Assembly: GCF_001735745.1 (NCBI RefSeq)
Contig: NZ_CP017260.1
Span: 1,020,001 to 1,052,000, forward strand
Length of the DNA: 32,000 nt
DNA from: Formosa sp. Hel1_33_131
GTDB taxonomy: Bacteria > Bacteroidota > Bacteroidia > Flavobacteriales > Flavobacteriaceae
Direction of reading: 5' to 3'
This document shows, piece by piece, positions 1 to 30,575 of the stretch (the first letter of the stretch is position 1; each line of letters starts with the position of its first letter). The position numbers were made by a program, and so were the translations under genes. The notes beneath the pieces are model-generated. The model made no database searches. It was not told the origin of the DNA and saw only the letters and a list, made by a program, of their open reading frames with translations.

Positions 1-584
1 ATAATTTAGCAACAACGCTTTATACTTTCACACCAGACGCTGGACAATGTGCAGACGTCACCACCATGACCATTGTGGTGAATCCCATCAGTGTTTTAAC
101 AATCGACGCTACAAAGCTGTCGGAAGATTTTGATGCGAATCAAGTTATTTCAGTGTCTGCTACGGGCGGAAGTGGGACTTATGAATACCAATTAGATGGC
201 GGTGTTTGGCAAAGCAATGCAACCTTTGAATATGTAATTGGATGTCAAGAACATACGGTGGCTGTACGTGATGCACTTGGGTGTAGCACAATCCCTGAAA
301 CAACAGTAATGATTATGGAATTTCCAAAATTCTTTACGCCAAATGGCGATGGGTATAACGACACTTGGAACATCAAATGTTTGAGAGATGACCCCACTGC
401 GTTGATCTCTATTTTTGACCGTTTTGGAAAACTACTGTTTCAATTTAAACCCAGTCAAAATGCATGGAATGGTGTGTTTAATGGATTGATGTTACCAGCG
501 ACTGATTATTGGTTTGTGGTAAATTACTTGAAAAGTAATGACGTACAAACGGAGTTCAGATCCCATTTTTCATTACGCCATTGA
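1..584 (+). CDS. C-terminal end of a large T9SS-secreted repeat adhesin paralog (5' end lies outside the window)
   Basis: Frame 3 is open from nt 3 (NLATTLYTFTPDAGQCADVTTMTIVV...), so the Met at 66 is internal. It contains the end of a 66-aa Cys-repeat, an SprB-like GGSGTYEYQLDGG segment, and FPKFFTPNGDGYNDTWNI...DYWFVV...HFSLRH, which fits the gliding-motility-associated / T9SS type B C-terminal domain pattern (TIGR04131-like). It is roughly 75-80% identical to the C-termini of the two downstream paralogs. Confidence 0.85.
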   Translation, partial: NLATTLYTFTPDAGQCADVTTMTIVVNPISVLTIDATKLSEDFDANQVISVSATGGSGTYEYQLDGGVWQSNATFEYVIGCQEHTVAVRDALGCSTIPETTVMIMEFPKFFTPNGDGYNDTWNIKCLRDDPTALISIFDRFGKLLFQFKPSQNAWNGVFNGLMLPATDYWFVVNYLKSNDVQTEFRSHFSLRH

Positions 585-751
585 AAACGACTAAAAAATA
601 GGGGGTATTTCTTCAACTCAAAAATTAAAAACCAATCTTCCTTAATTCTGTTTGATTTATTGTTTTTTAAAAGTAATATGAGGGTTTAAATACTTTGTAT
701 TTGGATTATTTTTCATTTCTTTGAAGGATTAACCAATTTTAAGCTTACATA

Positions 752-3700
752 TTGATATTAAACCCTAGTGCTTCGACCCGTATAGCGTTGTTTATTTTAA
801 CCATTATCTGTTTTCAAACAGCTTCCCACACACAAACCTTAAATACAATTCGAAATGGTACACCAGGCTCAGGAGTATGGATGGGAAATAATGGATTAGC
901 CCCATGGGTTTTGGGTAAGGGCGACGATTGTTATCGAATAACCACTTCAGACCAAGGTCAAGGTGGAGCAGTATGGTATAATCACCCGATCAATTTTAAT
1001 AATCCTTTCACGATTAGTTATCAAGCTTATTTTGGACTTAATCAAAGTGGTGGAGATGGTATGGCCCTTGTTTTTAAGAGTAATAACAATAATGAGTTAG
1101 GATCAACAGGTGAAGGTATAGGATATGGAGGAATTAGTCCTTCAATGATTTTTGAGTTTGACACCTATTGGAACAGCGGAAAAGGGGATCCTCGTCCTGA
1201 ACCTAATGAAGATCACGTCGCATTCAACTGGTGGGGAAATCCAAATCACAACACATCTGCAATATCAAGTGTTCAGTCTGTTCCAAATATTGAAGACGAC
1301 GCCTTCCATGAAGTTAAAGTGACGTGGGAACCAGCGCCTGTTAGTCGACTTAGGCTTTATTTAGATTGTGACCTAAAATTAAGTATTAATGGGTTGTATA
1401 TTCAAACTGGCGTTATGGGTGGAGATTATACCAATTATTATTTTGGTTTTACAGGCTCCACAGGGGCAAACACAAACGCACAATTTGTTTGCTTTAACAG
1501 TATTTCATTTGTTGATGGCCTTAATATACCAGATACCACCATTTGCGAGGGACAAACAGTAACATGGATAAACGCTTTAATCCCCTCTGGGACCTCCTAC
1601 AGTTGGAGTCCAACAACGGGCGTTAGCAACCCTAACATTTCAAATCCAACATTCACACCCACTACCACAACAACCTATACCGTTAGTATTAGCGATGTGT
1701 GTGGGGACGTCACAACTGAAGATGTTACAATCAACGTCAACCCAAATATAGTTCCTAGTTTTCTAGTTGATGTTGATCTTTTCTGTGTAGGAGATGCCAA
1801 CCCATTAAACAACACCTCTTTAGAAGGAATTACAGGCAGCTGGTCGCCTGCCTTTGACAATACAACTTCTGGAACCTATACATTTACACCAACTGCAGGA
1901 CAATGCGCAACTACAGCAACAAAAACCATCACAGTCAATCCGTTTATTGACTCTAACTTTAATACTGTTGCCGACATTTGTGATGGCGACCCTTTAGCAC
2001 AACTGCCAACCACTTCTAACAATGGTATTACGGGAACTTGGAGTCCTGCTCTTGACAATACGATCACGACAGAGTATACATTTACACCTGATGGAGGGCA
2101 ATGTGCAAACCCAGCGAACCTCACCATCACAGTGATCCAAAAAACAGACCCTACATTTACAGCAGTTGCCGACATTTGTGATGGCGACCCATTAGCACAA
2201 CTGCCAATTGTCTCTAACAATGGGGTTACGGGTATTTGGGCACCAGCGCTTGACAATACGCTCACAACTATTTATACCTTCACACCCGATGCAGGACAAT
2301 GTGCAGATACAGCTACCCTAACGATTACAGTCAATCAAAAAACAGAGCCTGTGTTTACCGCTGTTGCTGATATTTGTAATGGCGACGTTTTAAATCCTTT
2401 ACCAACCACTTCTAATGATGGTTTTACGGGAACTTGGACACCGGTTCTTGACAACACACTGACGACGGTTTATACCTTTACTCCGGATGCAGGCGAGTGT
2501 GCAGATCCAACAACGCTCACAATCAATGTGAATCAAAAAGTAGATCCTGATTTTAATATAGTAAATGATGTTTGTAATGGAGCTATTTTAGCACCCTTAC
2601 CGACACTCTCAAACGACGGCTTCAACGGAACCTGGAGCCCAGCGCTTGACACCACCACAACAACGACTTATACCTTTACTCCTGACTTAGGCGATTGTGC
2701 AAATCCAGTAACCTCCACCATTACGGTCAATCCGATTGTTGATCCAACTTTTGACCCTGTTGATGACATCTGTGACGGCTCTGTTTTAGCTCCCCTACCG
2801 ACCATTTCTAACGAGGGAGTTAACGGAACTTGGAGTCCTGCGCTTGACGCTACAGCAACAACGACTTATACATTTACACCTGATGTGGGAGAATGTGCCA
2901 ACCCAACAACGCTCACCATTACCTATGTTGAAAAAATAAATTCTTTCTTTACGCCTGTTAATGACATTTGTAATGGAGACGTTTTAACACCGCTTCCGAC
3001 CACTTCCAACAATGGGGTTATCGGAACTTGGACGCCTGCACTGGACGCTACAGCAACAACGACTTATACATTTACACCTGGTGTGGGAGAATGTGCGTTT
3101 CCAACTACCCTCACTATTGTGGTGAACCAGAAGGTAAATCCTGATTTTACCCCTGTAAACGACATCTGTGACGGCGATTTATTACTGCCACTGCCTATCA
3201 CCTCTAACGATGGGATTACGGGGAGTTGGAGTCCAACGATTGATAATACGATTACAACCACTTATACATTTACACCCAACACTTGGGAGTGTGCAAATCC
3301 AATAACCCTTACTATTACGGTTGAGCAGAAAACAGACCCTGTGTTTACAGCTGTTGACGACATTTGTAATGGTGACGTTTTAGCAGCACTGCCAATCACG
3401 TCTAACAATGGTGTGACTGGAACTTGGAGTCCTGCGCTTGACAATACCCTGACGACTTTTTACACATTTACGCCTACTGCAGGACTCTGTGCAAACCCAG
3501 CAACGCTCTCGATTGTGGTGGAACAAAAAGTAGATCCTGTTTTTATCCCTGTTGACGACATTTGTGATGGCGATATTTTAGTGCCACTGCCAACCACTTC
3601 TAACGACGGGATCAACGGAACTTGGACGCCTGCACTTGACAATACACTGACGACTGTTTATACATTCACACCTGATACAGGAGAATGTGCAAACCCAGCA

Positions 3701-5806
3701 ACGCTCACCATCTCTGTAAATCAAAAAGTAGATCCTGTTTTTACCGCTGTTGATGACATTTGTGATGGCGATGTTTTAGCAGCACTGCCAACAACTTCGA
3801 ACAATGGGATTGTTGGTACTTGGAGTGCCGCAATGGACAATAGGCTGACAACCACTTATACATTTACGCCTGATGTAGGAGAATGTGCAAACCCAACAAC
3901 GCTCACGATTGTGGTGAACCAAAAAGTAGATCCTGACTTCACCCCTGTGAACGACATTTGTGATGGGGATCTTATAATGCCGCTACCAATTACCTCTAAC
4001 GATGGAATTACAGGAAGCTGGAGTCCAGCACTAGACAATACGCTCACAACCACTTATACCTTTACACCCGAGCTATGGGAATGTGCAAATCCAGCAACAC
4101 TCACCATTACGGTGGAACAGAAAACAAATCCTGATTTTACGGCTGTGGATGACATCTGTAACGGAGATGTTCTAACGCCACTGCCAACGACTTCGAACAA
4201 TGGGATTACGGGGACTTGGACGCCTGCGCTTGACAATACAACGACGTCTGTTTATACGTTTACTCCGGATGCAGGACTTTGTGCGAATCCAGCAACGCTT
4301 ACCATTGCAGTGATTCAAAAAGTGGACCCAATCTTCACTCCTGTGGATGGCATTTGTGAAAATGATGTTTTAGCTCCTTTGCCGACGACTTCTAACGACG
4401 GGATCACAGGAACTTGGACGCCTGCGCTTGATAACACCATAACAACGCTATATACGTTTACGCCAGATGTAGGAGAATGTGCAAATACTGCAACGCTCAC
4501 CATTCTTGTTGAACAAAGATTAAATTCAGTGTTTACGCCCGTTGATGCGATCTGTAATGGAGAGGCTTTGACAACTTTACCAACGACTTCTAATAATGGG
4601 ATTACGGGAACGTGGAGTCCTATTCTTAACAATAGGCTGACGACGACTTATACCTTTACTCCGAATTGGTGGGAGTGTGCTCGTACAGAAATACTCACTA
4701 TTGAAGTGAACCAAAAGGTGGATCCAGACTTTACCCCTGTGGATGCTATTTGTGACGGCGATTTTTTAACCGCCTTACCGACCACATCCAACGAGGGAAT
4801 TACAGGAAGTTGGAGTCCGATACTTGACAATACACAGACAACGACGTATCGATTTGCGCCCAATCCGTGGGAGTGTGCCATTCCTACAACGCTTACCATT
4901 GTAGTGGCTCAAAAAGCAGATCCTGTTTTCACGCCTGTAAATGACATTTGTGACGGGGATCTTTTAACGCCTTTACCAACGGTTTCTAATGATGGTTTTT
5001 CAGGGGTTTGGAGTCCAGCGATGGACAATACCACCACGACGCTTTACACATTTATGCCTGACATTGGCGAGTGTGCAAATCCAACTACGCTTACCATTGT
5101 GGTGATTCCAAACAGTATTTCTACGTTTACTCAGATTGATCCTATTTGCGATGGCGACACGGTGGTGTTGCCGACGGTCACTAACGAAGGGTTTAGAGGA
5201 TCTTGGACGCCTGCCTTCAACAACAATGCAACAACGACTTATACGTTTACCGCAGATCCCGGTGAATGTGCTGAACCCACCACTATGACGGTGGTTGTGA
5301 ATCCGATCAATGTGTTAACGATCAGTGCCATTAATCAGTCGGAAGATTTTGATGCGAATCAAATGATTTCAGTTTCCGTAACGGGAGGAAGTGGTTCTTA
5401 TGAATATCAGCTAGATGGTGGAAATTGGCAACTCAGCTCTGTTTTTGAATATGTGATTGGTTGTCAGGAACATACATTTAAGGTCAGAGATGTAATTGAT
5501 GTCTGTAATACACAACCGGAAGCAACCCTCACTATTTTGGAGTTCCCAAAGTTTTTTACACCAAATGGCGATGGCTATAACGATACTTGGAACATCAAAT
5601 GTTTGAGAGATGACGCTTCAGCTTCGGTCACTATTTTTGACCGTTTGGGAAAATTGTTGTTTCAATTTAGTCCCAATCGCAGTGCTTGGAATGGAACTTT
5701 TAATGGATCGATGTTGCCAGGAACTGATTATTGGTTTGTGGTGACTTACTTAAAAAGTGATGGCGTACAAACGCAGTTTAGATCCCATTTTTCATTGCGT
5801 CATTAG
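752..5806 (+). CDS. Giant T9SS cargo / adhesin: signal peptide + L-type lectin domain + 18 x 66-aa two-Cys repeats + SprB-like segment + T9SS type B CTD (1684 aa)
   Basis: TTG start at 752 follows an in-frame TAA at 740. The hydrophobic N-terminus is IALFILTIICFQTASH. Legume-lectin-like motifs are present (GGAVWY, GGDGMALVF, GIGYGG, IFEFDTYWN...GDP...DHVAFN). The repeats follow the pattern xDICxGDxLxPLPTTSNxGITGTWSPALDNTxTTxYTFTPxxGECAxPxTLTI. The C-terminal part is FPKFFTPNGDGYNDTWNI...HFSLRH. Confidence 0.9.
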   Translation: MILNPSASTRIALFILTIICFQTASHTQTLNTIRNGTPGSGVWMGNNGLAPWVLGKGDDCYRITTSDQGQGGAVWYNHPINFNNPFTISYQAYFGLNQSGGDGMALVFKSNNNNELGSTGEGIGYGGISPSMIFEFDTYWNSGKGDPRPEPNEDHVAFNWWGNPNHNTSAISSVQSVPNIEDDAFHEVKVTWEPAPVSRLRLYLDCDLKLSINGLYIQTGVMGGDYTNYYFGFTGSTGANTNAQFVCFNSISFVDGLNIPDTTICEGQTVTWINALIPSGTSYSWSPTTGVSNPNISNPTFTPTTTTTYTVSISDVCGDVTTEDVTINVNPNIVPSFLVDVDLFCVGDANPLNNTSLEGITGSWSPAFDNTTSGTYTFTPTAGQCATTATKTITVNPFIDSNFNTVADICDGDPLAQLPTTSNNGITGTWSPALDNTITTEYTFTPDGGQCANPANLTITVIQKTDPTFTAVADICDGDPLAQLPIVSNNGVTGIWAPALDNTLTTIYTFTPDAGQCADTATLTITVNQKTEPVFTAVADICNGDVLNPLPTTSNDGFTGTWTPVLDNTLTTVYTFTPDAGECADPTTLTINVNQKVDPDFNIVNDVCNGAILAPLPTLSNDGFNGTWSPALDTTTTTTYTFTPDLGDCANPVTSTITVNPIVDPTFDPVDDICDGSVLAPLPTISNEGVNGTWSPALDATATTTYTFTPDVGECANPTTLTITYVEKINSFFTPVNDICNGDVLTPLPTTSNNGVIGTWTPALDATATTTYTFTPGVGECAFPTTLTIVVNQKVNPDFTPVNDICDGDLLLPLPITSNDGITGSWSPTIDNTITTTYTFTPNTWECANPITLTITVEQKTDPVFTAVDDICNGDVLAALPITSNNGVTGTWSPALDNTLTTFYTFTPTAGLCANPATLSIVVEQKVDPVFIPVDDICDGDILVPLPTTSNDGINGTWTPALDNTLTTVYTFTPDTGECANPATLTISVNQKVDPVFTAVDDICDGDVLAALPTTSNNGIVGTWSAAMDNRLTTTYTFTPDVGECANPTTLTIVVNQKVDPDFTPVNDICDGDLIMPLPITSNDGITGSWSPALDNTLTTTYTFTPELWECANPATLTITVEQKTNPDFTAVDDICNGDVLTPLPTTSNNGITGTWTPALDNTTTSVYTFTPDAGLCANPATLTIAVIQKVDPIFTPVDGICENDVLAPLPTTSNDGITGTWTPALDNTITTLYTFTPDVGECANTATLTILVEQRLNSVFTPVDAICNGEALTTLPTTSNNGITGTWSPILNNRLTTTYTFTPNWWECARTEILTIEVNQKVDPDFTPVDAICDGDFLTALPTTSNEGITGSWSPILDNTQTTTYRFAPNPWECAIPTTLTIVVAQKADPVFTPVNDICDGDLLTPLPTVSNDGFSGVWSPAMDNTTTTLYTFMPDIGECANPTTLTIVVIPNSISTFTQIDPICDGDTVVLPTVTNEGFRGSWTPAFNNNATTTYTFTADPGECAEPTTMTVVVNPINVLTISAINQSEDFDANQMISVSVTGGSGSYEYQLDGGNWQLSSVFEYVIGCQEHTFKVRDVIDVCNTQPEATLTILEFPKFFTPNGDGYNDTWNIKCLRDDASASVTIFDRLGKLLFQFSPNRSAWNGTFNGSMLPGTDYWFVVTYLKSDGVQTQFRSHFSLRH
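1736..5296 (+). repeat. In-frame tandem repeat array, 18 units with an exact 198-bp period (last unit 195 bp), with a superimposed 792-bp (4-unit) higher-order period
   Basis: Unit starts were checked at 1736, 1934, 2132 and 5102, all in phase with 198 nt. By my count unit 8 vs 12 is about 85% identical at protein level and unit 9 vs 13 about 80%. Adjacent units 8 vs 9 are about 64%. Antisense ORFs in the track recur at a 792-nt offset (3064 vs 3856, 3262 vs 4054). Confidence 0.9.
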
Positions 5807-6003
5807 AAGTCGTGACGACACTTGAAATTAACTTTTAAAATAGCATCAAAAGAAGAGGGCGATTTTCAACACATAAATTGAAAAACAACCCCCTTAACTT
5901 CATGTAATTTATTGCAGTTTAAAAGCAATTCAACCTCCTAATTGCTTAGTAATTAGATTATTTTTCATTTCTTTGGGGGATTAACCAATTTTAAGCTTAC
6001 ATA

Positions 6004-9000
6004 TTGATATTAAATCCTAGTACCTCGACCCGTATAGCGTTGTTTATTTTAACCGTTATCTGTTTTCAAACAGCTTCCCACACACAAACCTTAAATACAA
6101 TTCGAAATGGTACACCAGGCTCAGGAGTATGGATGGGAAATAATGGATTAGCCCCATGGGTTTTGGGTAAGGGCGACGATTGTTATCGAATAACCACTTC
6201 AGACCAAGGTCAAGGTGGAGCAGTATGGTATAATCACCCGATCAATTTTAATAATCCTTTCACGATTAGTTATCAAGCTTATTTTGGACTTAATCAAAGT
6301 GGTGGAGATGGTATGGCCCTTGTTTTTAAGAGTAATAACAATAATGAGTTAGGATCAACAGGTGAAGGTATAGGATATGGAGGAATTAGTCCTTCAATGA
6401 TTTTTGAGTTTGACACCTATGGAACAGCGGAAAAGGGGATCCTCGTCCTGAACCTAATGAAGATCACGTCGCATTCAACTGGTGGGGAAATCCAAATCAC
6501 AACACATCTGCAATATCAAGTGTTCAGTCTGTTCCAAATATTGAAGACGACGCCTTCCATGAAGTTAAAGTGACGTGGGAACCAGCGCCTGTTAGTCGAC
6601 TTAGGCTTTATTTAGATTGTGACCTAAAATTAAGTATTAATGGGTTGTATATTCAAACTGGCGTTATGGGTGGAGATTATACCAATTATTATTTTGGTTT
6701 TACAGGCTCCACAGGGGCAAACACAAACGCACAATTTGTTTGCTTTAACAGTATTTCATTTGTTGATGGCCTTAATATACCAGATACCACCATTTGCGAG
6801 GGACAAACAGTAACATGGATAAACGCTTTAATCCCCTCTGGGACCTCCTACAGTTGGAGTCCAACAACGGGCGTTAGCAACCCTAACATTTCAAATCCAA
6901 CATTCACACCCACTACCACAACAACCTATACCGTTAGTATTAGCGATGTGTGTGGGGACGTCACAACTGAAGATGTTACAATCAACGTCAACCCAAATAT
7001 AGTTCCTAGTTTTCTAGTTGATGTTGATCTTTTCTGTGTAGGAGATGCCAACCCATTAAACAACACCTCTTTAGAAGGAATTACAGGCAGCTGGTCGCCT
7101 GCCTTTGACAATACAACTTCTGGAACCTATACATTTACACCAACTGCAGGACAATGCGCAACTACAGCAACAAAAACCATCACAGTCAATCCGTTTATTG
7201 ACTCTAACTTTAATACTGTTGCCGACATTTGTGATGGCGACCCTTTAGCACAACTGCCAACCACTTCTAACAATGGTATTACGGGAACTTGGAGTCCTGC
7301 TCTTGACAATACGATCACGACAGAGTATACATTTACACCTGATGGAGGGCAATGTGCAAACCCAGCGAACCTCACCATCACAGTGATCCAAAAAACAGAC
7401 CCTACATTTACAGCAGTTGCCGACATTTGTGATGGCGACCCATTAGCACAACTGCCAATTGTCTCTAACAATGGGGTTACGGGTATTTGGGCACCAGCGC
7501 TTGACAATACAATTACGACACTTTATACATTTACACCTACTGCAGGACTCTGTGCCAATCCAACAACGCTCACCATCACAGTGATCCAAAAAACAGACCC
7601 TACATTTACAGCTGTGAATGACATTTGTAACGGGGATGTTTTAAATCCTTTACCAACCACATCTAACAATGGAGTGAATGGAACTTGGACACCAGCACTG
7701 AACAATACACTCACGACACAGTATACTTTTACGCCTGATGCAGGCGAGTGTGCAAATACGGCTACGCTCGTGATTTTAGTGAATCAAAAAACAGACCCTA
7801 CCTTTGCAGCCATCAACGATATCTGTAATGGGGCTGCTTTAGACCCCTTGCCAACGATCTCAAACAATGGAGTGAACGGAACTTGGACCCCTGCACTTGA
7901 CAATACGTTAACGACGACTTATACATTTACACCAACTGCAGGACTCTGTGCAAATCCAACAACGCTTACCATCACAGTAAACGATCAAGTAGATCCCTTA
8001 TTTACGGCTGTTGCGGATATTTGTAATGGCGACATTATAGCACCCTTAGCAACCACGTCTAACAATGGCATTACAGGAAGTTGGAATCCAGCTCTTGATA
8101 ACACACTCACAACGACTTATACGTTTACGCCCAGTCCAACCGAATGTGCAAATCCAACAACACTCACTATTGTAGTCAACCAAAAAGTGAATCCACTATT
8201 TACGCCTGTTAATGACATTTGTAATGGCGACGTTTTAGTGCCTTTACCAACCACGTCTAACGATGGTATTACAGGGACTTGGAGTCCAACACTTGACAAT
8301 ACAATCACGACGACTTATACTTTTACCCCAGATGTAGGGGAATGTGCAAACCCAGCAACGCTCACGATTACAGTGATTCAAAAAGTGGACTCGATATTTA
8401 ACCCCATAGGTGACATCTGTAGTGGCGGTCCTCTAGTGCCACACCCAACGACCTCTAATAATGGGATCACAGGAACTTGGAGTCCTGCGCTTGACAATAC
8501 AATCACAACCTTATATACGTTTACCCCTGATGCAGGCGAATGTGCAAACCCAGCAACGCTTACCATATTAGTGAATCAAAGAGTTGACCCGACCTTTATG
8601 GCTGTTGGCGGTATCTGTAACGGTGCAGTTTTAGCGCCTTTACCAACTACCTCTAATGAGGGTATTAACGGAACTTGGAGTCCTGCACTGGACAATACAA
8701 TCACGACCTTATATACCTTTACGCCTGATCCAGGAGAATGTGCAAACCCAACAACGCTTACTATTACGGTAGGTGAACCAGTAGATCCCCTATTTACGCC
8801 TATAAACGACATCTGTAACGGAGAAGCTTTAGCACCCTTGCCTCCAACATCTAACAATGGGATTACCGGAACTTGGAATCAAGCACCTAGCAATACGGCT
8901 ACTGCTGTTTACATATTTACGCCTAATGCGTGGGAGTGTGCAAACCCAACAACACTCTCCATTACGGTAAATCAGAAAGTAGATCCTGACTTCACGCCTG

Positions 9001-10265
9001 TGAATGACATTTGTAATGGCGACGTTTTAGCACCCTTACCAACCACGTCTAACGATGGCATTATTGGTACTTGGACGCCTGCTGTTGACAATACGCTGAC
9101 AACCACCTATACGTTTACACCAGATCCAAACGAATGTGCCAACCCAGCAACCCTTACGATTGTAGTGAATCAAAAAGTAAACCCTGATTTCACCCCTGTG
9201 GATGATATCTGTACTGGAACTGTTTTAGCGCCTTTACCAACGACGGCTAACAATGGTGTAACCGGAACTTGGAGTCCAGCACTTGATAATACAATAACTA
9301 CCTTATATACATTTACACCTGATGCAGGCTTGTGTGCAAACCCAGCAACGCTGACCATTTTAGTGATCCAAAAATTAGATCCTATTTTTGACCCTATAAA
9401 CCTCATTTGTGAAGGCGATTTATTAGCACCCTTACCAACAAATTCCAATCAAGGAATTGCGGGAACTTGGAGTCCTGCACTGGACAATACTGCAACTGGC
9501 ATTTATACATTTACACCCAATGCAGGCGAATGTGCAAATCCTACAAACCTAACCGTTACAGTCATTCCTAACAGCATTTCTACGTTCACACAAATAGACC
9601 CTATTTGTGCCGGCGAGACGATCACATTACTAACACAATCGAATCAAGGATTTAATGGAACTTGGAGTCCTGCTGTTGATAATACCACAACGACGACTTA
9701 CACCTTTACAGCAGATCCAGGCGAATGTGCAGACCCAACCACAATGACGGTAGTGGTCATTCCTGTAAATGTTTTAACGATTAGTGCTATAAATCTTTCA
9801 GAGGAATTTGATGCGAATCAAGTTATTTCCGTAACGGCATCAGGCGGAAGTGGTTCTTATGAGTATCAATTAGATGGCGGAGATTGGCAGTTCAGTTCTA
9901 TTTTCGAATATGTAATTGGATGTGATGAGCATACGGTGGCGGTAAGAGATGCCGTTGATAGCTGTAACATCCAGCCAGAAACCACAGTTGCGATTATGGA
10001 GTTCCCTAAATTCTTTACACCTAATGGTGATGGTTATAACGATACTTGGAACATCAAATGTTTTCTTGACGACCCTTTTGCAATGGTGCGTTTATCCGAT
10101 CGTTACGGGAAGTTATTGTATGAATTTAAACCAAGTCTAGACTCATGGGATGGCTCATTCAATGGCGAGATGTTGCCCAGTACGGACTATTGGTTTGTGG
10201 TAACCTATATAAACAGTAATGGAGTGGAAACGATTTACAGATCTCACTTTTCTTTGAGACGTTAA
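6004..10265 (+). pseudogene. Frameshifted paralog of the 752..5806 adhesin (lectin head + 14 x 66-aa repeats + T9SS type B CTD), split into ORFs 6004..6573 and 6570..10265
   Basis: Copy 2 reads acacctaTTggaacagc at 1161-1177, while copy 3 reads acacctaTggaacagc at about 6414-6429. This is a single T deletion at 6420/6421 inside the EFDTYWN lectin motif. The downstream ORF starts at a GTG with no signal peptide and continues the same protein. The surrounding sequence is otherwise identical to copy 2. A sequencing error cannot be excluded. Confidence 0.8.
6987..9755 (+). repeat. In-frame 198-bp tandem repeat array, 14 units, in the frameshifted paralog
   Basis: The phase is the same as in copy 2 (offset 5251 after the indel). 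The last unit ends at ...DPTTMTVV (9755), before VIPVNVLTISAINLS. Confidence 0.85.
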
Positions 10266-10448
10266 GAGACGTCAATTTTTAAGCTAAATAACAGACAGTC
10301 ACATTCTTTTGTGAAACTAAAATAATTGCTTTTTAAAATATTTTTTTGTACTTAATTACATATTTCTTAAATAAATCGTAAATTTATGAGAATAATTCAA
10401 TTTTATTCACTAAATTAGGCAGTAACCAAACTTTTAAGTAATATATAG

Positions 10449-11075
10449 ATGTTTTATCGTAATAACACAGCACTTGTAGCGTTGTTTGTTTTTGCCGCTA
10501 TAAGCTTTCAGACTTTATCCCATGCACAGTTAAATACCGTAACTGCTGGCAGTGCCTCAGACTTAGGAGGCAATTGTTATGAAATCACTCCTGATCAGGT
10601 TTACCTCTCTGTTGTAAATTCAATATTTTCTCCTACAATCACAACAACCTTTACAGTTAGCATTACCGACATTTGTGAAGACGTCACAACCGAGTGTGTT
10701 TTAATCACCGTCAATCCAACTATTACTCCAACATTTACACCAATAAACCCTATTTGTGAAGGAACTATTTTATTGAATTTACCAACCATATCAAATAATG
10801 GCTTTAGGGACACCTGATCTCCTGCCGCAAATAATAAAGTACCTACAGATTACTCCTTTACCCCCCAACCCCAATTCCGGGTGTTTGCTGTAATGATGGT
10901 AAAATGACCATTACAGTTTTTACAAAAGCAATCCTACTATTTACCCAAGTTGACCCCTTTTTTGCCTACGATTTCCAATGGTGGGATTATTGGTGTTTGT
11001 AGTCCTTCATTAAATAATTTAGAAAATACATTGAGGAAATTTCACTTAAAAAGTGGAGAGAATGCGTAAAGGGTA
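10449..11075 (+). pseudogene. Decayed 5' remnant of a fourth adhesin paralog (signal peptide, lectin domain deleted, degenerate repeats)
   Basis: ORF 10449..10817 has a signal peptide (ALVALFVFAAISFQTLSHAQ) and GGNCYEITPDQ, matching GDDCYRITTSDQ in the intact copies. It then jumps directly to SPTITTTFTVSITDICEDVTTECVLITVNP, matching TPTTTTTYTVSISDVCGDVTTEDVTINVNP, so about 230 aa of lectin domain are missing. A stop follows NNGFRDT. Downstream out-of-frame relics are SPAANNKVPTDYSFTP and LPTISNGGIIGVCSPSLNN...SGENA. Confidence 0.75.
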
Positions 11076-11144
11076 AGAAAACAAAATACGCTAAATCTAG
11101 AGTTACAAATAATCAATTTAAACTAAAAATTAAAAAACTAAGCT

Positions 11145-11483
11145 ATGAAAAACCTAATCCACATTATTATTTTTATGTTTGGAATTTCCATGTTAGGACA
11201 AACATTTATTCTACAAGAACGCGATAAACAATTACATTTTGCAGCTGGGAGTTTTGCTGGAGTGTTAGGTTACAGTTGGTCATATCATAGGTACCATAAT
11301 AAAACTAAAGCTATAATTACAGGTTTATGTACTTCACTTGTAGCTGGCGTTGCTAAAGAAGTATATGATAACTATCAAGGAGGCATTTTTGATAAAAGAG
11401 ATATATTAGCAACTGGAATGGGTGGAGTATTTGTAACATTTACAATACCACTATTTCAAAATAAAAAGAATAGGTCACAGTAG
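11145..11483 (+). CDS. Small YfiM/DUF2279-like membrane protein or lipoprotein (112 aa)
   Basis: ATG start and hydrophobic N-terminus. The pattern DKQLHFAAGSFAGVLG ... GLCTSLVAGVAKEVYD ... GIFDKRDILATGMGG parallels E. coli YfiM (DKAQHF...GASKELWD...WSWKDFAWDVAG). The assignment rests on motif memory only. Confidence 0.55.
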   Translation: MKNLIHIIIFMFGISMLGQTFILQERDKQLHFAAGSFAGVLGYSWSYHRYHNKTKAIITGLCTSLVAGVAKEVYDNYQGGIFDKRDILATGMGGVFVTFTIPLFQNKKNRSQ

Positions 11484-11578
11484 GAATTACATGTTCTAGT
11501 TTCGATCTATTTTATGCAGTTCATGTTAAGATTCTGTAAGAGGCAAAACAACAATAACTAAATCATTATTATAAATAC

Positions 11579-11760
11579 AATCCATCAAAATTAGCGATAC
11601 AAACCTATCGGAAGAATTAATGTCAATAAAACTATTTCAGCAATGGCATCGAGTAGATGTGGTACTTATGAATATCAATTAGATGGAGTAGATTGCCAAA
11701 CGAGTTCAGTATTTGAAAATGTGATTGGATGTGATGATCATAGGATGGAAATAGGGATTT
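11579..11760 (+). pseudogene. Decayed 3' remnant of the fourth adhesin paralog (SprB-like segment only; T9SS CTD absent)
   Basis: Nucleotide similarity to 81-270 of copy 1. tcggaagaattaatgtcaat...ggtacttatgaatatcaattagatgg translates to ...CGTYEYQLDGVDCQTSSVFENVIGCDDH, compared with GGSGTYEYQLDGGVWQSNATFEYVIGCQEH. There is no continuous ORF and no FPKFFTPNGDG domain after it. Confidence 0.7.
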
Positions 11761-11818: not shown

Positions 11819-14800
11819 TCAGAAATATGCTTTTAACTGCACAGTCCCCGTATGGATGGTGCGACTGGTTTCACTCTTTCTGCCAAAATAATTGATATTC
11901 AGATCTAAGAACTTCGTCAGTTTTTTTTGCGCAATTAAAGACCACGTAAAGTTAGTGCCAGGCTGTAAGCCTTCCATCATTTGGTAGGCAACCGGCGTAT
12001 TGGCATTTCCAGAAAAATCATTTGAAAAATAATTAAACTCTCCTGTAATGGCGGCTTTCTGATTTTGGGTTAGCGTAAACGATACTCCATATTTCTCTTG
12101 TGTGAGTTGTTCCAAACCTCCAATAGAATTGTCTTTCTTTTGATGTTGATAATACACATCAAAGCGTTTGTTATCATCCAGTAAATAGGACAGTTTGGGA
12201 TTCAAAAGCGTTTCATTAAGTTGATAATTTTTAGATGAAAAGTTTTGGCTTGCACTTTTATTTTTATCTAAGTTCGTTTGTAAATTGAGCAACCACTGCT
12301 CTTGAATTATATGTGAAAAATTAAGCTGATGACTAAACGTTTCCTGTTCCACATACCCAAATGACAACACATTCCGAGCGTTGGATTCCGAATAACTGTA
12401 GGAAACCGTATAATGTTGCTTCCCTCTGTTGTAAAACAACTGATTTCTAAAATTCGATTGCAATGCCAACTGATCTTCCGACGTTGAATGAAACGGATTT
12501 AGACGGATGGATGCACTGTTATTTTTATCCTTTCGATCGATTAAAAAAGAGGTTTGGTTATAAAAATGAGACCAAAACCGTTTGGAGGCTTGGGTCGAAT
12601 TGGCCCACTGAATTGGGTTTAAAGTCAGGGATTGACTCAGTTTATTTTGATGCGTTGGAATGTAAACTTGGTTGGGCAACAACACACGAACATAAGTCGC
12701 TAGATCTTGAAATTGAGCGATTTCAAATTCTTCTAATTCCTGAATACCGTTCTCATTATAATCGAACCAGACAAAACTTCCCTGACCAGGTTCTACTTCT
12801 ACATACGTAAAATCTTGTTGTGGCAAACGCCCTGCATTGGTTTCAAACAGTGTATTCCAATGGATCAAATTATTGACTAACTTTTGACTGTATTGCAATC
12901 GAGAATTGATTGATTTCTGAGTGGCCGTGGATGCGTTTGTAGATTTAAAAACCCTGTAATTTGCATATAAACTCAAATTCGTGTTTTGAGTTTGAATCCA
13001 TTTGGAATCCAAATAATAGGTGTCTGATGCGTTCACTTTGGCAAGGCGGTTATTCTGAATACTGTCATTCACCCTGTGAATATACCCTAGTTTCACAAAC
13101 ACCTTTGTTGAATCACCAATACCCGTAAACACTTCATAGGCTTGAAATTTCTGACTGATGGGGTCTAACTGATTTAATACAACATCCTTTTTTTCGTTGT
13201 GTTCCGTAGAAAATTTTACTCCCGACCAGCCTTTTTGATAACTGTATTTCAAGCGGTTATCAGACCTATAAAACATAGAATTCGAGTTGAATCCATCCGT
13301 TTCTAAGATGCTTGAATTCGTGTAAAACTGAAAGCGTTTCAAGTTGAGTTTTGTAAAGAGCACATGACGTCTCCCTTCGTAATTATCTTTGTAGTTCAAA
13401 TGTTGAAATTGATAATTGAACGTTCCTTTTTGGGCATGTGAAAATTTGGCACCTGCAACTGCAAAAACTTGATCGCCTAGATTAGGTACACTTTGATTTC
13501 CAGTTAGGGGTTCAACATTCCAATCCCGATTGAATTCGGGTCTGTAGAGTCTTTGGATTGTTCTGAAATCACTTTGTACATAATCGATGTCGGAAGTGAC
13601 ATCTAACGTCCAGTCTCCAGCCGTTTTAAGTAGTTGATGGTCTATAGACAGTTGACCCGCCACCCCTGTGTCATTCTCATCATCGAGCGATGAGTATAAA
13701 TTTAAGTCATTTTTACTGGCGGCAAATTCAAACTCAATAGCTGTTTTTTCATTGGGTTTAAAAGCCCCATTCACCACCGCCACTTGTAATTTTACAGGAG
13801 CAACGAGTTGCACAATCGGTTCAAAATCCCCTTGTTTGATCCCAGCTATGGGTGCGACATACTCGTAAATATTTGAAATGGCATTAGAGCTTGTTATCTT
13901 ATAATTACCTTGCATTGACCCTACCGCCGTGAAATTGACAAGGTACAATTCATCCTCAGCATTGTTTGAAAACTCAAATACTTCCACCCCGTTATCAATA
14001 ACTTTCTGATATAAAATTCGATTTTCGTTATACGCTTCAGGAGTGGCTGAAGGCGCCGTCATTAGGGTTTGGTCATCTCCTGCATTGGACAAAATCGCTA
14101 CTTGTTCCGAATTAAGAGATTGCTGAAGCGGTTGGTTTTTTAGATCATTTTCATTGTAAACAGAAACGCCCAGCGTCCATTTTTTATTTTTATAACGACT
14201 GCCCGCATACCCTATAAATCGAGAATAATTCCGCTCACTGTATTGATAATCGACCGTAATTCGCATTTCTGAATTGATGGGATAGGTGGCATTAAAAATT
14301 AGTTCCCCCGCATTATAATCAATAATATAATCCTCTGTGGCGCCACGTTGCAAAGGAATTCCATTCACATACACGGTTTCGCTTCCAGAAACCACTAAAA
14401 CATACAACTCATTATTTGGCCCAACAAGCTTATAAGGTCCTTGATTTCCTTCTTGCCCTACAAATTGACTTGATGAAAATTGACCACGCACCAAAGCTCC
14501 TGAGGCAAAAGCGGTAAACTCTGAATCTTCATTTTTAAAATTAGTGGTCAATGAAAGCCCTTGAACCCGTTTAGAAAATTTTGAGAAATAAGACTGCGTA
14601 TCTTCTAAATCAATATCCCCCGCTCTGATTCCCCAACGCTCACTAAAAACTTCAATAAACACCTGATCAAATTCATCCAACTGTTGTGAGTAACCGCTTT
14701 CCTGTAAGGGAATGTTTGAATCTTGAATGGACGCCCGCAAGGTCACTTTATCATTTAACTTGCCGCTAATTTGCAAATCAAGTTCACTGTTCAATACCGA

Positions 14801-15256
14801 ATTTTGATTGTTTCCAATAGTCACCCCTCTTGAGATACTTCCAGAAGACACCAAACCATCAAATGGCAGCACCACCCGTTTTGAGCTGGGTTGGGATAAC
14901 TGGTATAGTTTTTGAAGATTTCCAGTACTATTCACAATAATGCCTTCATCCAATTCTTGATACGTTTTGGTGATGAAACTCGGATAGCTTAAATAAGTGA
15001 CTACAATGGAATCTGTCTCCAAAGTATTAGGAAAGGTGAGCAGCGCATTTTCAAAATCTATCGTGTATAATGAGGGTGAAATAGTCTCATTTTTTAAATT
15101 TGATACAGAAAAATTAGAAGGATTAATGCTTACACTGTCAATTTGAAGGATACCGCTTACCGCTAGTTTTTTTGTCCTATAGAGAGACGACACCTCTTGA
15201 GACCAAGAATGTGTAAAAGATATAAGGAGTAAAATTGTAAAACAGTACTTCATCAT
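11819..15256 (-). CDS. Large predicted outer-membrane beta-barrel protein, family not identified (1145 aa)
   Basis: Long uninterrupted ORF with an N-terminal signal peptide (CFTILLLISFTHSWSQ). The composition is rich in alternating aromatic/polar and N/S/Q/Y residues, as is typical of beta-barrels. The C-terminus ends ...VQLKAYF with a terminal Phe. No TonB-box or plug motifs were recognised. Confidence 0.7.
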   Translation of the reverse strand: MMKYCFTILLLISFTHSWSQEVSSLYRTKKLAVSGILQIDSVSINPSNFSVSNLKNETISPSLYTIDFENALLTFPNTLETDSIVVTYLSYPSFITKTYQELDEGIIVNSTGNLQKLYQLSQPSSKRVVLPFDGLVSSGSISRGVTIGNNQNSVLNSELDLQISGKLNDKVTLRASIQDSNIPLQESGYSQQLDEFDQVFIEVFSERWGIRAGDIDLEDTQSYFSKFSKRVQGLSLTTNFKNEDSEFTAFASGALVRGQFSSSQFVGQEGNQGPYKLVGPNNELYVLVVSGSETVYVNGIPLQRGATEDYIIDYNAGELIFNATYPINSEMRITVDYQYSERNYSRFIGYAGSRYKNKKWTLGVSVYNENDLKNQPLQQSLNSEQVAILSNAGDDQTLMTAPSATPEAYNENRILYQKVIDNGVEVFEFSNNAEDELYLVNFTAVGSMQGNYKITSSNAISNIYEYVAPIAGIKQGDFEPIVQLVAPVKLQVAVVNGAFKPNEKTAIEFEFAASKNDLNLYSSLDDENDTGVAGQLSIDHQLLKTAGDWTLDVTSDIDYVQSDFRTIQRLYRPEFNRDWNVEPLTGNQSVPNLGDQVFAVAGAKFSHAQKGTFNYQFQHLNYKDNYEGRRHVLFTKLNLKRFQFYTNSSILETDGFNSNSMFYRSDNRLKYSYQKGWSGVKFSTEHNEKKDVVLNQLDPISQKFQAYEVFTGIGDSTKVFVKLGYIHRVNDSIQNNRLAKVNASDTYYLDSKWIQTQNTNLSLYANYRVFKSTNASTATQKSINSRLQYSQKLVNNLIHWNTLFETNAGRLPQQDFTYVEVEPGQGSFVWFDYNENGIQELEEFEIAQFQDLATYVRVLLPNQVYIPTHQNKLSQSLTLNPIQWANSTQASKRFWSHFYNQTSFLIDRKDKNNSASIRLNPFHSTSEDQLALQSNFRNQLFYNRGKQHYTVSYSYSESNARNVLSFGYVEQETFSHQLNFSHIIQEQWLLNLQTNLDKNKSASQNFSSKNYQLNETLLNPKLSYLLDDNKRFDVYYQHQKKDNSIGGLEQLTQEKYGVSFTLTQNQKAAITGEFNYFSNDFSGNANTPVAYQMMEGLQPGTNFTWSLIAQKKLTKFLDLNINYFGRKSETSRTIHTGTVQLKAYF

Positions 15257-22067: not shown

Positions 22068-24089
22068 TTATTTTTTCGTTAAAACTATTTGTTCGTTTTC
22101 TTTTTCTATTAGCTTGTTAAAATACGCTTTTAATGTGTCATAATGCATAGAAGATATAATTGGGGTGTTTATTTTAGACTCTATTACTAATTGTATTGCT
22201 GATTCGTTGTGAGATAAATTATATTTAAATAACCCAAAGTTTTCAGGCAAAGCAAAAGCTTCTGCTTTTGGTAATGACTCTACTTTATAACCTTCTGGCA
22301 AACTGATAGTCAATCTATATAAGCTAGTAGATGGATACCCGAAATCTACTGGGAATTCTCTTTTTTCTAATTTAAATGGATTTTCTTTCGATTTTAAAAA
22401 GAATAAAGGAGAAAAATATATTTTATCGCCTATAATATCCGCTTGATTATCTATAGCAAATTTATAAATTTCTATAATAGGTTTTGTCAAATCAACTAAG
22501 TTATTTACTTTAAAATCTGAACCTTCTAAACCATCATACTTGTTTTCTAACTTCTCTAGAAAATCGTTTTCATCTGTATTATTATATCTGTTTCTGTAAG
22601 ATAGGGCTGAGTGATTTGTTTTCACGCTTCGGATGCTTCCCTTTATACTTCCATCTTCAGATAAATTGACAAGCATTAAAGTGGTTCTTTTTGAGTTTTC
22701 TTTAGGATATAAATTAATTAAACTCGATGTTCCATTTTTTTTAATAATTCTTCCTTCCCAATTTAAAGCTGTATAAGGTAAAATGTTTGGAGAACCATAT
22801 TTATTAGTCGCATCTAATAAAACCTTACCCGTTGGCAACTCCACGCACGAAATAACATAATTATAGCCTTCTCTCGTTGGAAATAGTGGAATTCCATTAT
22901 CTCTAGTGCTTACCAAAACGGGGTTTGCGTCTAATCCTGCATAACGTAGCATTGAGGTTAACATTAAATTAATTTCGGCCACATTACCTACCTGTTCTTT
23001 GTATGCTTTTTTAACACCATCGCTGGTGTATTTACCATAATATTCATTCCATTTTACTTTGGATTTGACAAAATCGAAAATTAATGCTATTTTTTTACTA
23101 GGATCTGAAACCGTGCTTATAAGCGCATCTATATCATTTTTATAATACCCAGATTTATTTAATTCTGCGCCAAAATTAGAACTTTTATATATGGTTTGAA
23201 CCACATCTTCCCATGTTGTAGAGTAATGTTTTATTGGGGAGTTGGGTAATTTCACATAGGATAGTTCATATTTAACTGAAGATCTGTAATTATCAATATT
23301 GTTTACGTGAGGCTCTTCTTTTAAAGCAGGAATGTTTTCTAGATTATATGTGGATACTGTTTTTGTAAACTCTAAATCAGAATAGCTATAAGTTGTTGAT
23401 GTATGTGGAGTTACAGATCCCTTAGCTTCAGATCTGTGTTTATTTCTAAATGAAATTTTATCACTTCGTTTTTCTGTTTTAGGAGTGATTGGCAAAAAGC
23501 CTTTCAAGTTCATTTTAAAATTATAATACTCTGGAGCTTGAAACTCAGCTTCTAATTTTTTTATTGGGATGGCGTGCTGAAATTGAAATTCATCTATATT
23601 TTGATAAAAAGGAGATCGTATTTTGTATTCATACTCCACAATCGAACCTTCTTTAATATTGGGCATTGTGAATTTTGTTTCTTTACGGAATTTTGATTTT
23701 TCTGTTTTAAAAATACCGCTTTTTTTGAGTTTAACACCTTCCATTTTACCGTCAGTTAAATTGTAGGTGTAGGCTTTTAAACCCGTTACTTTCTCTTGAC
23801 TTGAACTGCTTTTGTAAAGACTTATGGCTTTTGTAGCATAATTAAATCCTTCTTGGTTGTAGATTTTGACACGTTCGTGCACTTCTGTTACTAGCTCAAA
23901 ACCGGTACTTTGATTATACTCGAAAAATGTTTTTCGATATTTATATAAATAAGTGGCGCTTGCCGACGAATCTAATGGATTAAATTTTTCTTGGAGTTCT
24001 TCTTTTGAAATTTTTCCAAATTTATAATTTTGTGAAGTTGTTATTTGACATACAAATAACACAACTAATAGGATGGCTGGGGTTTTCAT
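22068..24089 (-). CDS. Secreted DUF3857/DUF3858-type protein with a catalytically degenerate transglutaminase-like core
   Basis: Signal peptide ILLVVLFVCQITTSQ. The core VGNVAEINLMLTSMLRYAGLDANPVLVSTRD...YNYVISCV...LLDAT aligns with the Cys/His/Asp core of the upstream paralog but lacks the Cys and His. Confidence 0.65.
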   Translation of the reverse strand: MKTPAILLVVLFVCQITTSQNYKFGKISKEELQEKFNPLDSSASATYLYKYRKTFFEYNQSTGFELVTEVHERVKIYNQEGFNYATKAISLYKSSSSQEKVTGLKAYTYNLTDGKMEGVKLKKSGIFKTEKSKFRKETKFTMPNIKEGSIVEYEYKIRSPFYQNIDEFQFQHAIPIKKLEAEFQAPEYYNFKMNLKGFLPITPKTEKRSDKISFRNKHRSEAKGSVTPHTSTTYSYSDLEFTKTVSTYNLENIPALKEEPHVNNIDNYRSSVKYELSYVKLPNSPIKHYSTTWEDVVQTIYKSSNFGAELNKSGYYKNDIDALISTVSDPSKKIALIFDFVKSKVKWNEYYGKYTSDGVKKAYKEQVGNVAEINLMLTSMLRYAGLDANPVLVSTRDNGIPLFPTREGYNYVISCVELPTGKVLLDATNKYGSPNILPYTALNWEGRIIKKNGTSSLINLYPKENSKRTTLMLVNLSEDGSIKGSIRSVKTNHSALSYRNRYNNTDENDFLEKLENKYDGLEGSDFKVNNLVDLTKPIIEIYKFAIDNQADIIGDKIYFSPLFFLKSKENPFKLEKREFPVDFGYPSTSLYRLTISLPEGYKVESLPKAEAFALPENFGLFKYNLSHNESAIQLVIESKINTPIISSMHYDTLKAYFNKLIEKENEQIVLTKK

Positions 24090-24092
24090 TTA

Positions 24093-26009
24093 TTATTCTT
24101 TTTTAATTAATGCTATTTTTGAGGTATCTTGTTTTGAAACTTCTTTATAAAAATCTCTAAAACTACTATAGTCTTCTTTAGGGAATTCGCCATCGCTCAC
24201 AACAAATTCTCTTTTATAAATTAACGTATTTTCGTCTTTAGCGATTACTTCTGATTTATAACTGCCAAATTTGTTTTCAATTATTTTTTTATTTGGCAAC
24301 GATTCTACTTTGTAGTTTTGTGGCAATGTAATTTCTACCTCATCAATATCTTTAAAGCCTCTTTTAATTTTTAGCGGCAGTTTCCTGTTTCTGTAGCGGT
24401 CAGGTATATGTGTGTTTCTGTTTAAGGCATTAACTGTTAAAAGCATTCTATTCGCAATTATTTTAGAATAGTTTATAGCTTTAAATCTTACCGTTTCGTT
24501 AAACACAATACTCTCTTTGTCATTAACAATAGATATTTCATTGATAGAAATATCATTAATATACCCCCAGCGATTCTTGTAATGCTTATCTAAATCTCTC
24601 TCGGTTTCAGTTTCTAACCAATATTTATCATCGTACTGAATTCCTTTAGATTTAAGGGTTGCATTTACATCAATAGTACCATCATCAAATACTTTGTAAT
24701 TCGCTTTTATAAGCTGAGTGTTTTCCTCTGTCGTATATTTTTTGGTGTGTTTTATCTGACCCCCTTGTGGAGTAATTACTAACACATCTCTATTGTCAGT
24801 AAAGTCGCCAATAAAACCAAATGGTAGTTTTTGATTGGTACATTCTAACCAGATATCTTCTTTGTTTTTTTGGGGAATTGATAATATTGCATGATTCGCT
24901 TGCATTATTGTAAAGTCTTTTTCAATATCTCTCTGAGAGTTCCCTGCAAAAAGTAAAGTGAAATTTGAATTAACTCCAACAGCTTTTAATAGTGACATAG
25001 TATAATTAGTTAATCCTTTACAATCCCCATAACCTAACCGATCTACTTCTGATGCATTAAAAGGTTTCCAGCCACCAATACCAACTTGGACACTTATATA
25101 CCTAACCTTATCTTGAACGTATTGATATATTTTTTTCGCCTTACCTATATCAGTTTTCTCATCTTTTACTAAATCTTGAATATAAACAGCTGTACTTTCA
25201 GGTAAATCAATAGTACTTTCTATTAAATCAAAATATACCCATTTCCCAAAATCATTCCAGTTTTCAGCTTCAGCATAAACCCCCTCATAAGTAAATTCAT
25301 TTGCTGCTACCAAAATTTTTGGAGCAAAATCTACCATTGATGGACTGTACTCTTCTGGTTTAAGAGCATTCATGTTTTTAGTTTTATAAAATATTCTGCC
25401 CGCGACCGCCTCTATTTCAATATCTCTATTTTCAATATTTTTCTCTTTCTTTCTAATGGTAATATTTGTGGGGTAATTTAACGCATAAGTGCTTACTTCT
25501 GTACTTACAAAGTAATCATCAATTGGTACAAATGAAGGAATAAAAGCAGTATTGCCTGTGGTAGTTTCGCAGGTGAATTGTATTGTATAAGGATAGTCAA
25601 TTGGAGTGTATTCTAAATATTTTACTCTTGAATCAGAATATAGAGTGCCTCCATCTACAGCACTCACATCTTTAAAATCATTCTTTTTTATTTTTTTTAT
25701 TTGATTTCCTAAAGCATCAAAAGCTAAAACTTGAAGGGTTTTAATTTTAACATTTCTATCATAATACACAAAGGCGTCTATGTTTTCGTTTCCTTTTTTA
25801 TTTAATATGGTTATAATTCGTTTTTCTTTAACAGACATCTGGCTGGAAGATTTCAACGATACAATAACCTCATTGAGTCTTACAACCGCATTTGCGTTAT
25901 CCATCATCGCTTCATCTATATGAGATACGGATAATTCTGGACGGTCTTGAGAATAAACTAAAAACGCATTAAGTAAAAGGCAAAAGCCTATGAGCTTTCT
26001 GAAGGACAT
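24093..26009 (-). CDS. Secreted DUF3857 + transglutaminase-like cysteine-protease-fold protein
   Basis: Signal peptide FCLLLNAFLVYSQ. The core reads GYGDCKGLTNYTMSLLKAVGV...ANHAILSI...WLECT, giving a Cys-His-acidic triad arrangement typical of transglutaminase-like domains. Confidence 0.7.
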   Translation of the reverse strand: MSFRKLIGFCLLLNAFLVYSQDRPELSVSHIDEAMMDNANAVVRLNEVIVSLKSSSQMSVKEKRIITILNKKGNENIDAFVYYDRNVKIKTLQVLAFDALGNQIKKIKKNDFKDVSAVDGGTLYSDSRVKYLEYTPIDYPYTIQFTCETTTGNTAFIPSFVPIDDYFVSTEVSTYALNYPTNITIRKKEKNIENRDIEIEAVAGRIFYKTKNMNALKPEEYSPSMVDFAPKILVAANEFTYEGVYAEAENWNDFGKWVYFDLIESTIDLPESTAVYIQDLVKDEKTDIGKAKKIYQYVQDKVRYISVQVGIGGWKPFNASEVDRLGYGDCKGLTNYTMSLLKAVGVNSNFTLLFAGNSQRDIEKDFTIMQANHAILSIPQKNKEDIWLECTNQKLPFGFIGDFTDNRDVLVITPQGGQIKHTKKYTTEENTQLIKANYKVFDDGTIDVNATLKSKGIQYDDKYWLETETERDLDKHYKNRWGYINDISINEISIVNDKESIVFNETVRFKAINYSKIIANRMLLTVNALNRNTHIPDRYRNRKLPLKIKRGFKDIDEVEITLPQNYKVESLPNKKIIENKFGSYKSEVIAKDENTLIYKREFVVSDGEFPKEDYSSFRDFYKEVSKQDTSKIALIKKE

Positions 26010-30573: not shown

Positions 30574-30575
30574 AT

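Follow-up and report, generated by a model that had tools for sequence, protein, structure and literature searches.

The DNA analysed here (the window) is a stretch of 32,000 nucleotides (nt) from Formosa sp. Hel1_33_131, whose complete genome has 2,735,158 bp. By open reading frame (ORF) listing and translation, it opens with an array of paralogous genes for lectin-headed type IX secretion system (T9SS) adhesins. An initial annotation had noted four same-strand copies in graded condition, and all four indeed lie on the + strand (Table 1): the window holds only the tail of copy 1, copy 2 is intact, and copies 3 and 4 are damaged to different degrees. We consider it quite probable that the array encodes functional surface adhesins, a tandem family specific to this lineage that evolves by duplication and loss with recurrent, bidirectional conversion at the 5′ end, copy 3 having been inactivated newly and copy 4 long ago.

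Such a birth-and-death family with concerted evolution of its 5′ end is a case of ordinary multigene-family evolution with no programmed switching. The comparisons below show that tandem duplication and loss shape the array and that recurrent conversion swaps the 5′ ends between copies 2 and 3. The proteins are already annotated as lectin and T9SS type B proteins in RefSeq, and the main value of the locus is its population-level record of gene conversion, which is exceptionally clear.

Within the window, the 5′ parts of copies 2 and 3 are nearly the same sequence. By pairwise alignment, 1456 bp at 804–2259 match 6056–7510 with zero substitutions and a 1-nt indel as the sole difference, while the flanking upstream spacers are ~72% and the gene bodies ~70% identical. 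The longest exact match between the bodies outside the tract is 29 nt. Synonymous divergence (dS) between the two copies is 1.41 in the bodies and 1.9 in the tails, against 0.25 for non-homogenised heads (see below). This high divergence of bodies, tails and flanks, set against the identical tract, marks the copies as evidently old duplicates with recently homogenised 5′ ends. Pairwise alignments were used instead of a multiple alignment of the heads, which slipped register in the repeats.

The tract was then compared among environmental contigs 95–99.9% identical to the window (numbered with the prefix L), which were found via a neighbour gene and a homologue search, and pairwise analysis resolved five states. 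In the first (L011/L061, ~95% identity), there is no homogenised tract, and the heads of copies 2 and 3 are 72% identical in amino acids (aa) and 81% in nucleotides. In the second (L012), homogenisation covers only 804–1734, and each gene keeps its own allele of 1735–2259. The third is that of the window and, on the copy 3 side, also of L006 and L007: both genes have the copy 3 allele of 1735–2259 up to a border at 2259/7510, a pattern that reads as transfer from copy 3 to copy 2.

The fourth state (L001) equals the third plus 37 clustered sites at 7511–7637 that are all switched to the copy 2 base, evidently by an extra transfer from copy 2 to copy 3. In the fifth (L057–59), both genes have the copy 2 allele to ~2398 in a 1626-bp identical run, copy 3 having been overwritten by copy 2 sequence. 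With at least four haplotypes that differ in tract boundaries, transfers in both directions and a sister lineage free of the tract, the states show that gene conversion is recurrent and that, in copies 2 and 3, it is limited to ~1.5 kb at the 5′ end.

The strain comparison proposed in the initial annotation thus revealed mosaic content and also length changes, copy 2 of L012 being exactly one 198-bp repeat shorter than that of L057. Upstream of the window the array extends to a fifth member, gene X (FORMB_09520, 888 aa), which lies at 7136–9802 in L011 and at 1–1819 in L057. The last 900 bp of gene X and copy 1 are 92% identical with stretches of 98–100%, indicating a second, older and partial conversion tract in their tails.

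Assembly or polishing artefacts, such as the collapse of repeats or the assignment of reads to the wrong copy, are an extremely improbable source of the tract and the haplotypes. In L002, L007 and L056, identical sequence has very probably led to graph chimeras or collapses, and the long-read contigs contain scattered 1-nt insertions. However, the contigs of the fifth state are long-read ones of 209–475 kb from three samples, each spanning both genes with the identical run. Exactly the same copy 3 boundary as in the window reappears in L003, L004, L006, L007 and L008, and the L001-type boundary recurs in three assemblies. Moreover, MEGAHIT contigs start 141 nt (one k-mer) before the predicted borders, at 6845 in L003, 7370 in L006 and 7522 in L005, so that these break points match the predicted repeat ends and independently corroborate three states.

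The three-gene contigs of L002 and L007, in which copy 1 is followed by a single gene with a copy 2 head and a copy 3 body, were rejected as deletion haplotypes. Since both genes are found in all long-read contigs, a collapse of short reads is the most likely origin of these two contigs. As a practical warning, short-read metagenome assemblies chimerise or collapse this locus across identical stretches down to 37 nt, and gene counts from such contigs are unreliable.

Another explanation is that the haplotypes stem mainly from homologous recombination, allelic or ectopic, with DNA imported from other strains. Several haplotypes and the 95%-identity lineage co-occur in the same sample series, and the adhesin orthologues have a lower dS (0.13–0.15) than some neighbours (0.25–0.31), a hint of between-lineage exchange. 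Nevertheless, bringing copy 2 sequence into copy 3 or the reverse still needs paralogue-to-paralogue transfer, the tract ends at breakpoints of paralogue identity, and the within-genome tracts are perfectly identical. We deem a predominantly imported origin unlikely and prefer conversion between the neighbouring paralogues.

The single frameshift reported initially for copy 3 is one missing T at 6420, which splits the gene into ORFs of 189 and 1231 aa; with the T restored, it encodes 1420 aa. The T falls in a TT dinucleotide, and programmed frameshifting at this site was ruled out, as it has no slippery heptamer or homopolymer. L001, L002 and L007 have the T, L012 and L057–59 have copy 3 as one uninterrupted ORF (1420/1424 aa), and intact orthologues of these lengths are also listed for L001 and L007. 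Every other strain that covers the site has copy 3 intact. These observations and an orthologue ratio of nonsynonymous to synonymous substitution rates (dN/dS) of 0.16 for copy 3 point to an inactivation that is recent, strain-specific and apparently later than the last conversion.

The frameshift is probably genuine and not an error in the reference, because the Logan contig L056 (SRR12829168), independent of the reference, has the same allele. L056 is otherwise identical to the window, save that, over a stretch of 37 shared nt at 726–762, its context changes from copy 2 to copy 3. Its reading as a frameshift in copy 2 was rejected, the contig being a chimera of the k=31 de Bruijn graph over this stretch. 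Also rejected was the idea that the broken copy varies between strains: the further frameshifts of the long-read contigs each come from one inserted base (G6 to G7 in one case) and look like assembly errors, because housekeeping neighbours also appear truncated in those contigs. The graded states described initially hold for this isolate but are partly a single-isolate effect, since the frameshift is strain-specific.

Copy 4 has lost as much as was first described. It keeps a putative signal peptide and ~27 lectin residues at 10449–10610, and tblastn against copy 1 aligns residues 1–54 and then jumps to residue 276, the lectin core being deleted. A post-lectin linker and ~2 degenerate repeats with stop codons follow at 10608–11096, and after a gap the copy resurfaces as a short SprB-like piece, its C-terminal domain (CTD) gone. 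All close relatives share the remnant unchanged, the 95% lineage has it with 94% aa identity, and its 122-aa ORF (10449–10817, FORMB_09570) is found at all related loci. Hence, copy 4 appears to be an old pseudogene fixed in the lineage.

In a sister Formosa metagenome-assembled genome (L019), the copy 4 orthologue is nearly full-length, with a signal peptide, a lectin with one in-frame stop, repeats and a CTD. Enclosed in the remnant is the 112-aa lipoprotein gene (FORMB_09590-like), whose YfiM-like match is weak, at 28.5 bits where the cut-off is 117. Both the Hel1_33_131 lineage and the 95% lineage have this gene. Its absence from L019, where copy 4 is nearly intact, suggests that it replaced the middle of copy 4.

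Gene content also differs between lineages. Copy 1 is absent from L011/L061, and L019 has an extra lectin-headed paralogue of 1731 aa (L019 coordinates 2956–8151) between copy 3 and the copy 4 orthologue (8350–10173). In a scan of species-representative genomes, many genera of Flavobacteriaceae have lectin-headed type B adhesins, but hardly ever more than one copy, with one gene at the syntenic site in more distant genera and arrays only in Formosa-like genomes. This lineage-specific content, the pseudogenes of different ages and the single gene in distant genera bear out the birth-and-death family first proposed.

The other proposal of the initial annotation, one expressed gene with silent donor copies, found no support. 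Every copy has its own spacer of 167–197 bp, start codon, signal peptide and CTD, and copies 1–3 are all intact in L057–59. The orthologue dN/dS is 0.16–0.18 for copies 2 and 3, and their bodies and tails at 0.09–0.20 show a signature of purifying selection.

Programmed surface variation, in which one expressed gene is rewritten from silent or defective donors as in pilE/pilS, vlsE and tprK, is accordingly weighed against these same facts. In its favour, segments do pass non-reciprocally, and repeatedly, from one copy to another, this isolate has pseudogenes at two of the five positions of the array, and the head dN/dS is high. Besides the completeness of the genes, the purifying selection and the intact copy 3 of other strains, several observations speak against it: decayed copy 4 shares no exact match of at least 20 nt with any other copy, the transfer homogenises rather than diversifies and affects one tract only, and the copy 2 body has 0 single-nucleotide polymorphisms against L001 over 4 kb. 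No recombinase or inverton was seen at the locus, a search of the spacers for invertons having found only weak AT-rich inverted repeats. We regard programmed variation as very unlikely and keep to ordinary family evolution.

Some points weigh against the family of functional, converting adhesins. The head dN/dS of ~0.89 (dS 0.25), obtained for non-homogenised heads of L011 copy 2 (10001–10900) against the copy 3 type (window 752–1651), is based on only 244 codons; it hints at divergence in specificity and at earlier rounds of exchange, and the lectin may be under diversifying or relaxed selection. In published proteomes of Formosa, gene X and copy 1 turn up sporadically but copy 2 or 3 never, although this absence is weak evidence, because with ~1 K/R per 66 aa few tryptic peptides are expected. 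Scans for sigma-70 promoters and for the Bacteroidetes −7 motif TAnnTTTG gave no more matches than chance and none in the spacers. In addition, L002, L007 and L056 are short-read assemblies, which can form chimeras across the identical tract, and some haplotype diversity could come from between-strain rather than within-genome recombination.

A stronger version of the conversion reading makes the tract a selected device for fast module shuffling, in which lectin heads, and alleles that have lost their function, would be carried by frequent ectopic exchange from one promoter and stalk length to another. We hold this to be rather doubtful. If it were true, a bloom population would keep several surface types side by side, as a defence, for instance, against phages or grazers or as a means of tracking changing algal glycans, and conversion could repair copy 3 or silence copy 2.

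Searches with hidden Markov models (HMMs), another check proposed initially, put the lectin and the type B CTD above their cut-offs. The L-type lectin family PF18483 (gathering cut-off 78.3 bits) scores 143.8 bits in copy 2, 142.2 in copy 1 and 84.3 in the N-terminal fragment of copy 3; PF00139 reaches only 16.8 bits on the lectin head, below threshold. TIGR04131 for the type B CTD (NCBIfam cut-off 35 bits) scores 108.9 in copy 1, 106 in copy 2 and 98.1 in copy 3, with no match in copy 4, and the copy 1 tail also has a CHU_C match of 62.5 bits. Thus, the lectin, the CTD and the 66-aa repeat of the architecture first described stand, but the SprB-like call is a resemblance only, as PF13573 (Pfam cut-off 28 bits) gives 26.3 for the copy 2 segment, 21.0 for copy 1 and 18.5 for gene X.

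Copies 1 and 4 have a different lectin subtype, with ~47% aa identity to the copy 2/3 head. The putative Sec signal peptide is predicted from a charged n-region, the hydrophobic core IALFILTIICF and ASH/TQ. Gene X combines Ig_7, three of the same 66-aa repeats and a type B CTD with a near-threshold C-type-lectin match (21.8 against 22.6 bits).

The stalk repeat has a period of 198 bp or 66 aa by Tandem Repeats Finder (TRF), and an HMM built from the units assigns ~18 of them to copy 2, 14 to copy 3, 6 to copy 1, 3 to gene X and 1–2 to copy 4. A three-unit AlphaFold2 model (pLDDT 87) forms three small beta-sandwich beads, with weak Foldseek matches to tandem immunoglobulin (Ig)-like arrays. The repeat is widespread among Bacteroidota T9SS cargo of both CTD types, and neither a PDB sequence search nor Pfam identifies the unit. 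Matches to IGFL and NUP210-Ig were dismissed as spurious or sub-threshold.

From these domains, we propose how the adhesins would be displayed. The Sec signal peptide would direct export across the inner membrane and the type B CTD secretion via the T9SS, and a stalk of 6–18 disulfide-containing Ig-like domains would keep the lectin head, presumably binding glycans, away from the cell. Conversion would then give copies 2 and 3 the same head at two heights, of 18 and 14 Ig-like domains.

For surface anchoring, type B substrates often, though not necessarily, have a porP/sprF-like shuttle gene immediately downstream. No PorP/SprF shuttle gene is found among the window ORFs, and a glycyl-tRNA synthetase (GlyRS) gene lies upstream of gene X. 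By their gene context, the adhesins are best counted as 'orphan' type B substrates. As the array has no linked PorP/SprF gene, they would probably be anchored by a single PorP/SprF-type shuttle that they share and that is encoded at another locus. In Flavobacterium johnsoniae, a single PorP/SprF shuttle serves three orphan type B substrates whose CTDs are related (PMC12618676).

Table 1. Features of the adhesin array and its convergent neighbour, in window positions
Feature	Position	Strand	Remarks
Copy 1, 3′ end	1–584	+	Last repeat, SprB-like motif, T9SS type B CTD ~318–581; frame 3; ORF tail 3–584
Spacer copy 1/copy 2	585–751	+	167 bp; ~72% identity to copy 2/copy 3 spacer
Copy 2, intact, 1684 aa, TTG start	752–5806	+	ORF, HMM; WP_069676332.1
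Copy 2 putative signal peptide	~752–835	+	Sequence
Copy 2 L-type lectin	920–1501	+	HMM
Copy 2 Ig-like 66-aa repeats, ~18	1712–5338	+	TRF and repeat HMM
Copy 2 SprB-like motif	~5363–5425	+	Sub-threshold
Copy 2 type B CTD	5540–5800	+	TIGR04131
Conversion tract, copy 2 side	804–2259	+	Identical to 6056–7510 except 1-nt indel
Spacer copy 2/copy 3	5807–6003	+	197 bp; 31-nt insertion relative to first spacer
Copy 3, pseudogene in this strain	6004–10265	+	Two ORFs, 6004–6573 and 6570–10265; CTD 9999–10262
Conversion tract, copy 3 side	6056–7510	+	Pairwise alignment
Copy 3 frameshift site	6418–6422	+	TATGG; TATTGG in copy 2 (1166–1171)
Copy 4 remnant, 5′ part	10449–11096	+	tblastn against copy 1
112-aa lipoprotein gene within copy 4	11145–11483	+	Intact ORF
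Copy 4 remnant, 3′ part	11619–11753	+	45-aa SprB-like piece
FORMB_09610, 1145 aa, convergent	11819–15256	−	No family

As to earlier annotation, the full copy 1 gene is FORMB_09530 (WP_069676331.1, 873 aa), with lectin and CTD, and is seen complete also in L002, L007 and L057. Copy 2 carries the RefSeq label 'lectin-like domain-containing / T9SS type B sorting domain-containing protein' and was originally called 'mucin 2' with 1463 aa in GenBank; the N-terminal fragment of copy 3 is FORMB_09550. An exact-sequence look-up of copy 2 in a contig index gave no match, and a search of one literature collection found no paper combining L-type lectin, Flavobacteria and T9SS.

The convergent neighbour FORMB_09610 matches no Pfam or NCBIfam family, ends in ...KAYF and is consistently detected in published proteomes. 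A lectin-headed adhesin adjoins this same 1145-aa neighbour in L026, L046 and L049, down to 59% aa identity, and this neighbour could be a functional partner of the adhesins.

Farther along the window, a pair of adjacent paralogous DUF3857/transglutaminase-like genes (673 and 638 aa) lies on the − strand at 22068–26009 with a GC content of 30–31%, against 36–45% elsewhere, and L005 diverges strongly from the window at 24500–25136. A DUF6088/AbiEi-like antitoxin gene and an AbiEii nucleotidyltransferase toxin gene, a type IV toxin–antitoxin or abortive-infection pair, occupy 29983–31589 at a low GC of 28–31%.

Hel1_33_131 is a model for marine flavobacteria that respond to blooms and has a small genome, yet it devotes ~17 kb to lectin-tipped T9SS adhesins. 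The locus offers a clean natural case of recurrent bidirectional conversion between adjacent adhesin genes in strains from the same (North Sea) sample series. Its products are predicted candidates for glycan-binding surface proteins in attachment of the bacterium to algae or particles.

Among known systems, the SprB and RemA adhesins of F. johnsoniae are likewise large, repetitive and T9SS-secreted with a TIGR04131 type B CTD, and RemA is a precedent for a lectin head on a mobile adhesin. The lectin type of RemA differs from the L-type (PF18483). The present adhesins differ further in the 66-aa Ig-like stalk without a Pfam family, the sub-threshold SprB repeat and the head-to-tail array with gene conversion.

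Aureispira GhpA (PDB 9flx and related) is also a T9SS-secreted surface filament of tandem small Ig-like domains in Bacteroidota. Foldseek places it with the top matches of the repeat model, yet the match is weak (E about 3e-3, TM 0.37), and the protein is much larger with a different head and function.

In its behaviour the locus resembles paralogous adhesin families with segment exchange. In Porphyromonas gingivalis kgp, rgpA and hagA, recombination or gene conversion moves domains of T9SS adhesins from one paralogue or strain to another (PMC5266723). That system differs in its type A CTDs, dispersed loci, haemagglutinin/cleaved-adhesin domains and life as a host-associated pathogen. The pilE/pilS, vlsE and tprK systems resemble the array in the unidirectional copying of segments between related sequences of one genome. 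Their donors, however, are truncated and promoterless and diversify one expression site at high frequency, whereas full genes take part here and the transfer homogenises.

The Helicobacter pylori babA/babB and Neisseria opa genes are likewise complete paralogues, each with its own promoter; they trade segments of the 5′ or central part, and their chimeric or homogenised alleles vary among strains. Those exchanges are tied to immune pressure and often to phase-variable repeats. In comparison, the Formosa array has no repeat-tract phase switch and belongs to a free-living marine bacterium.

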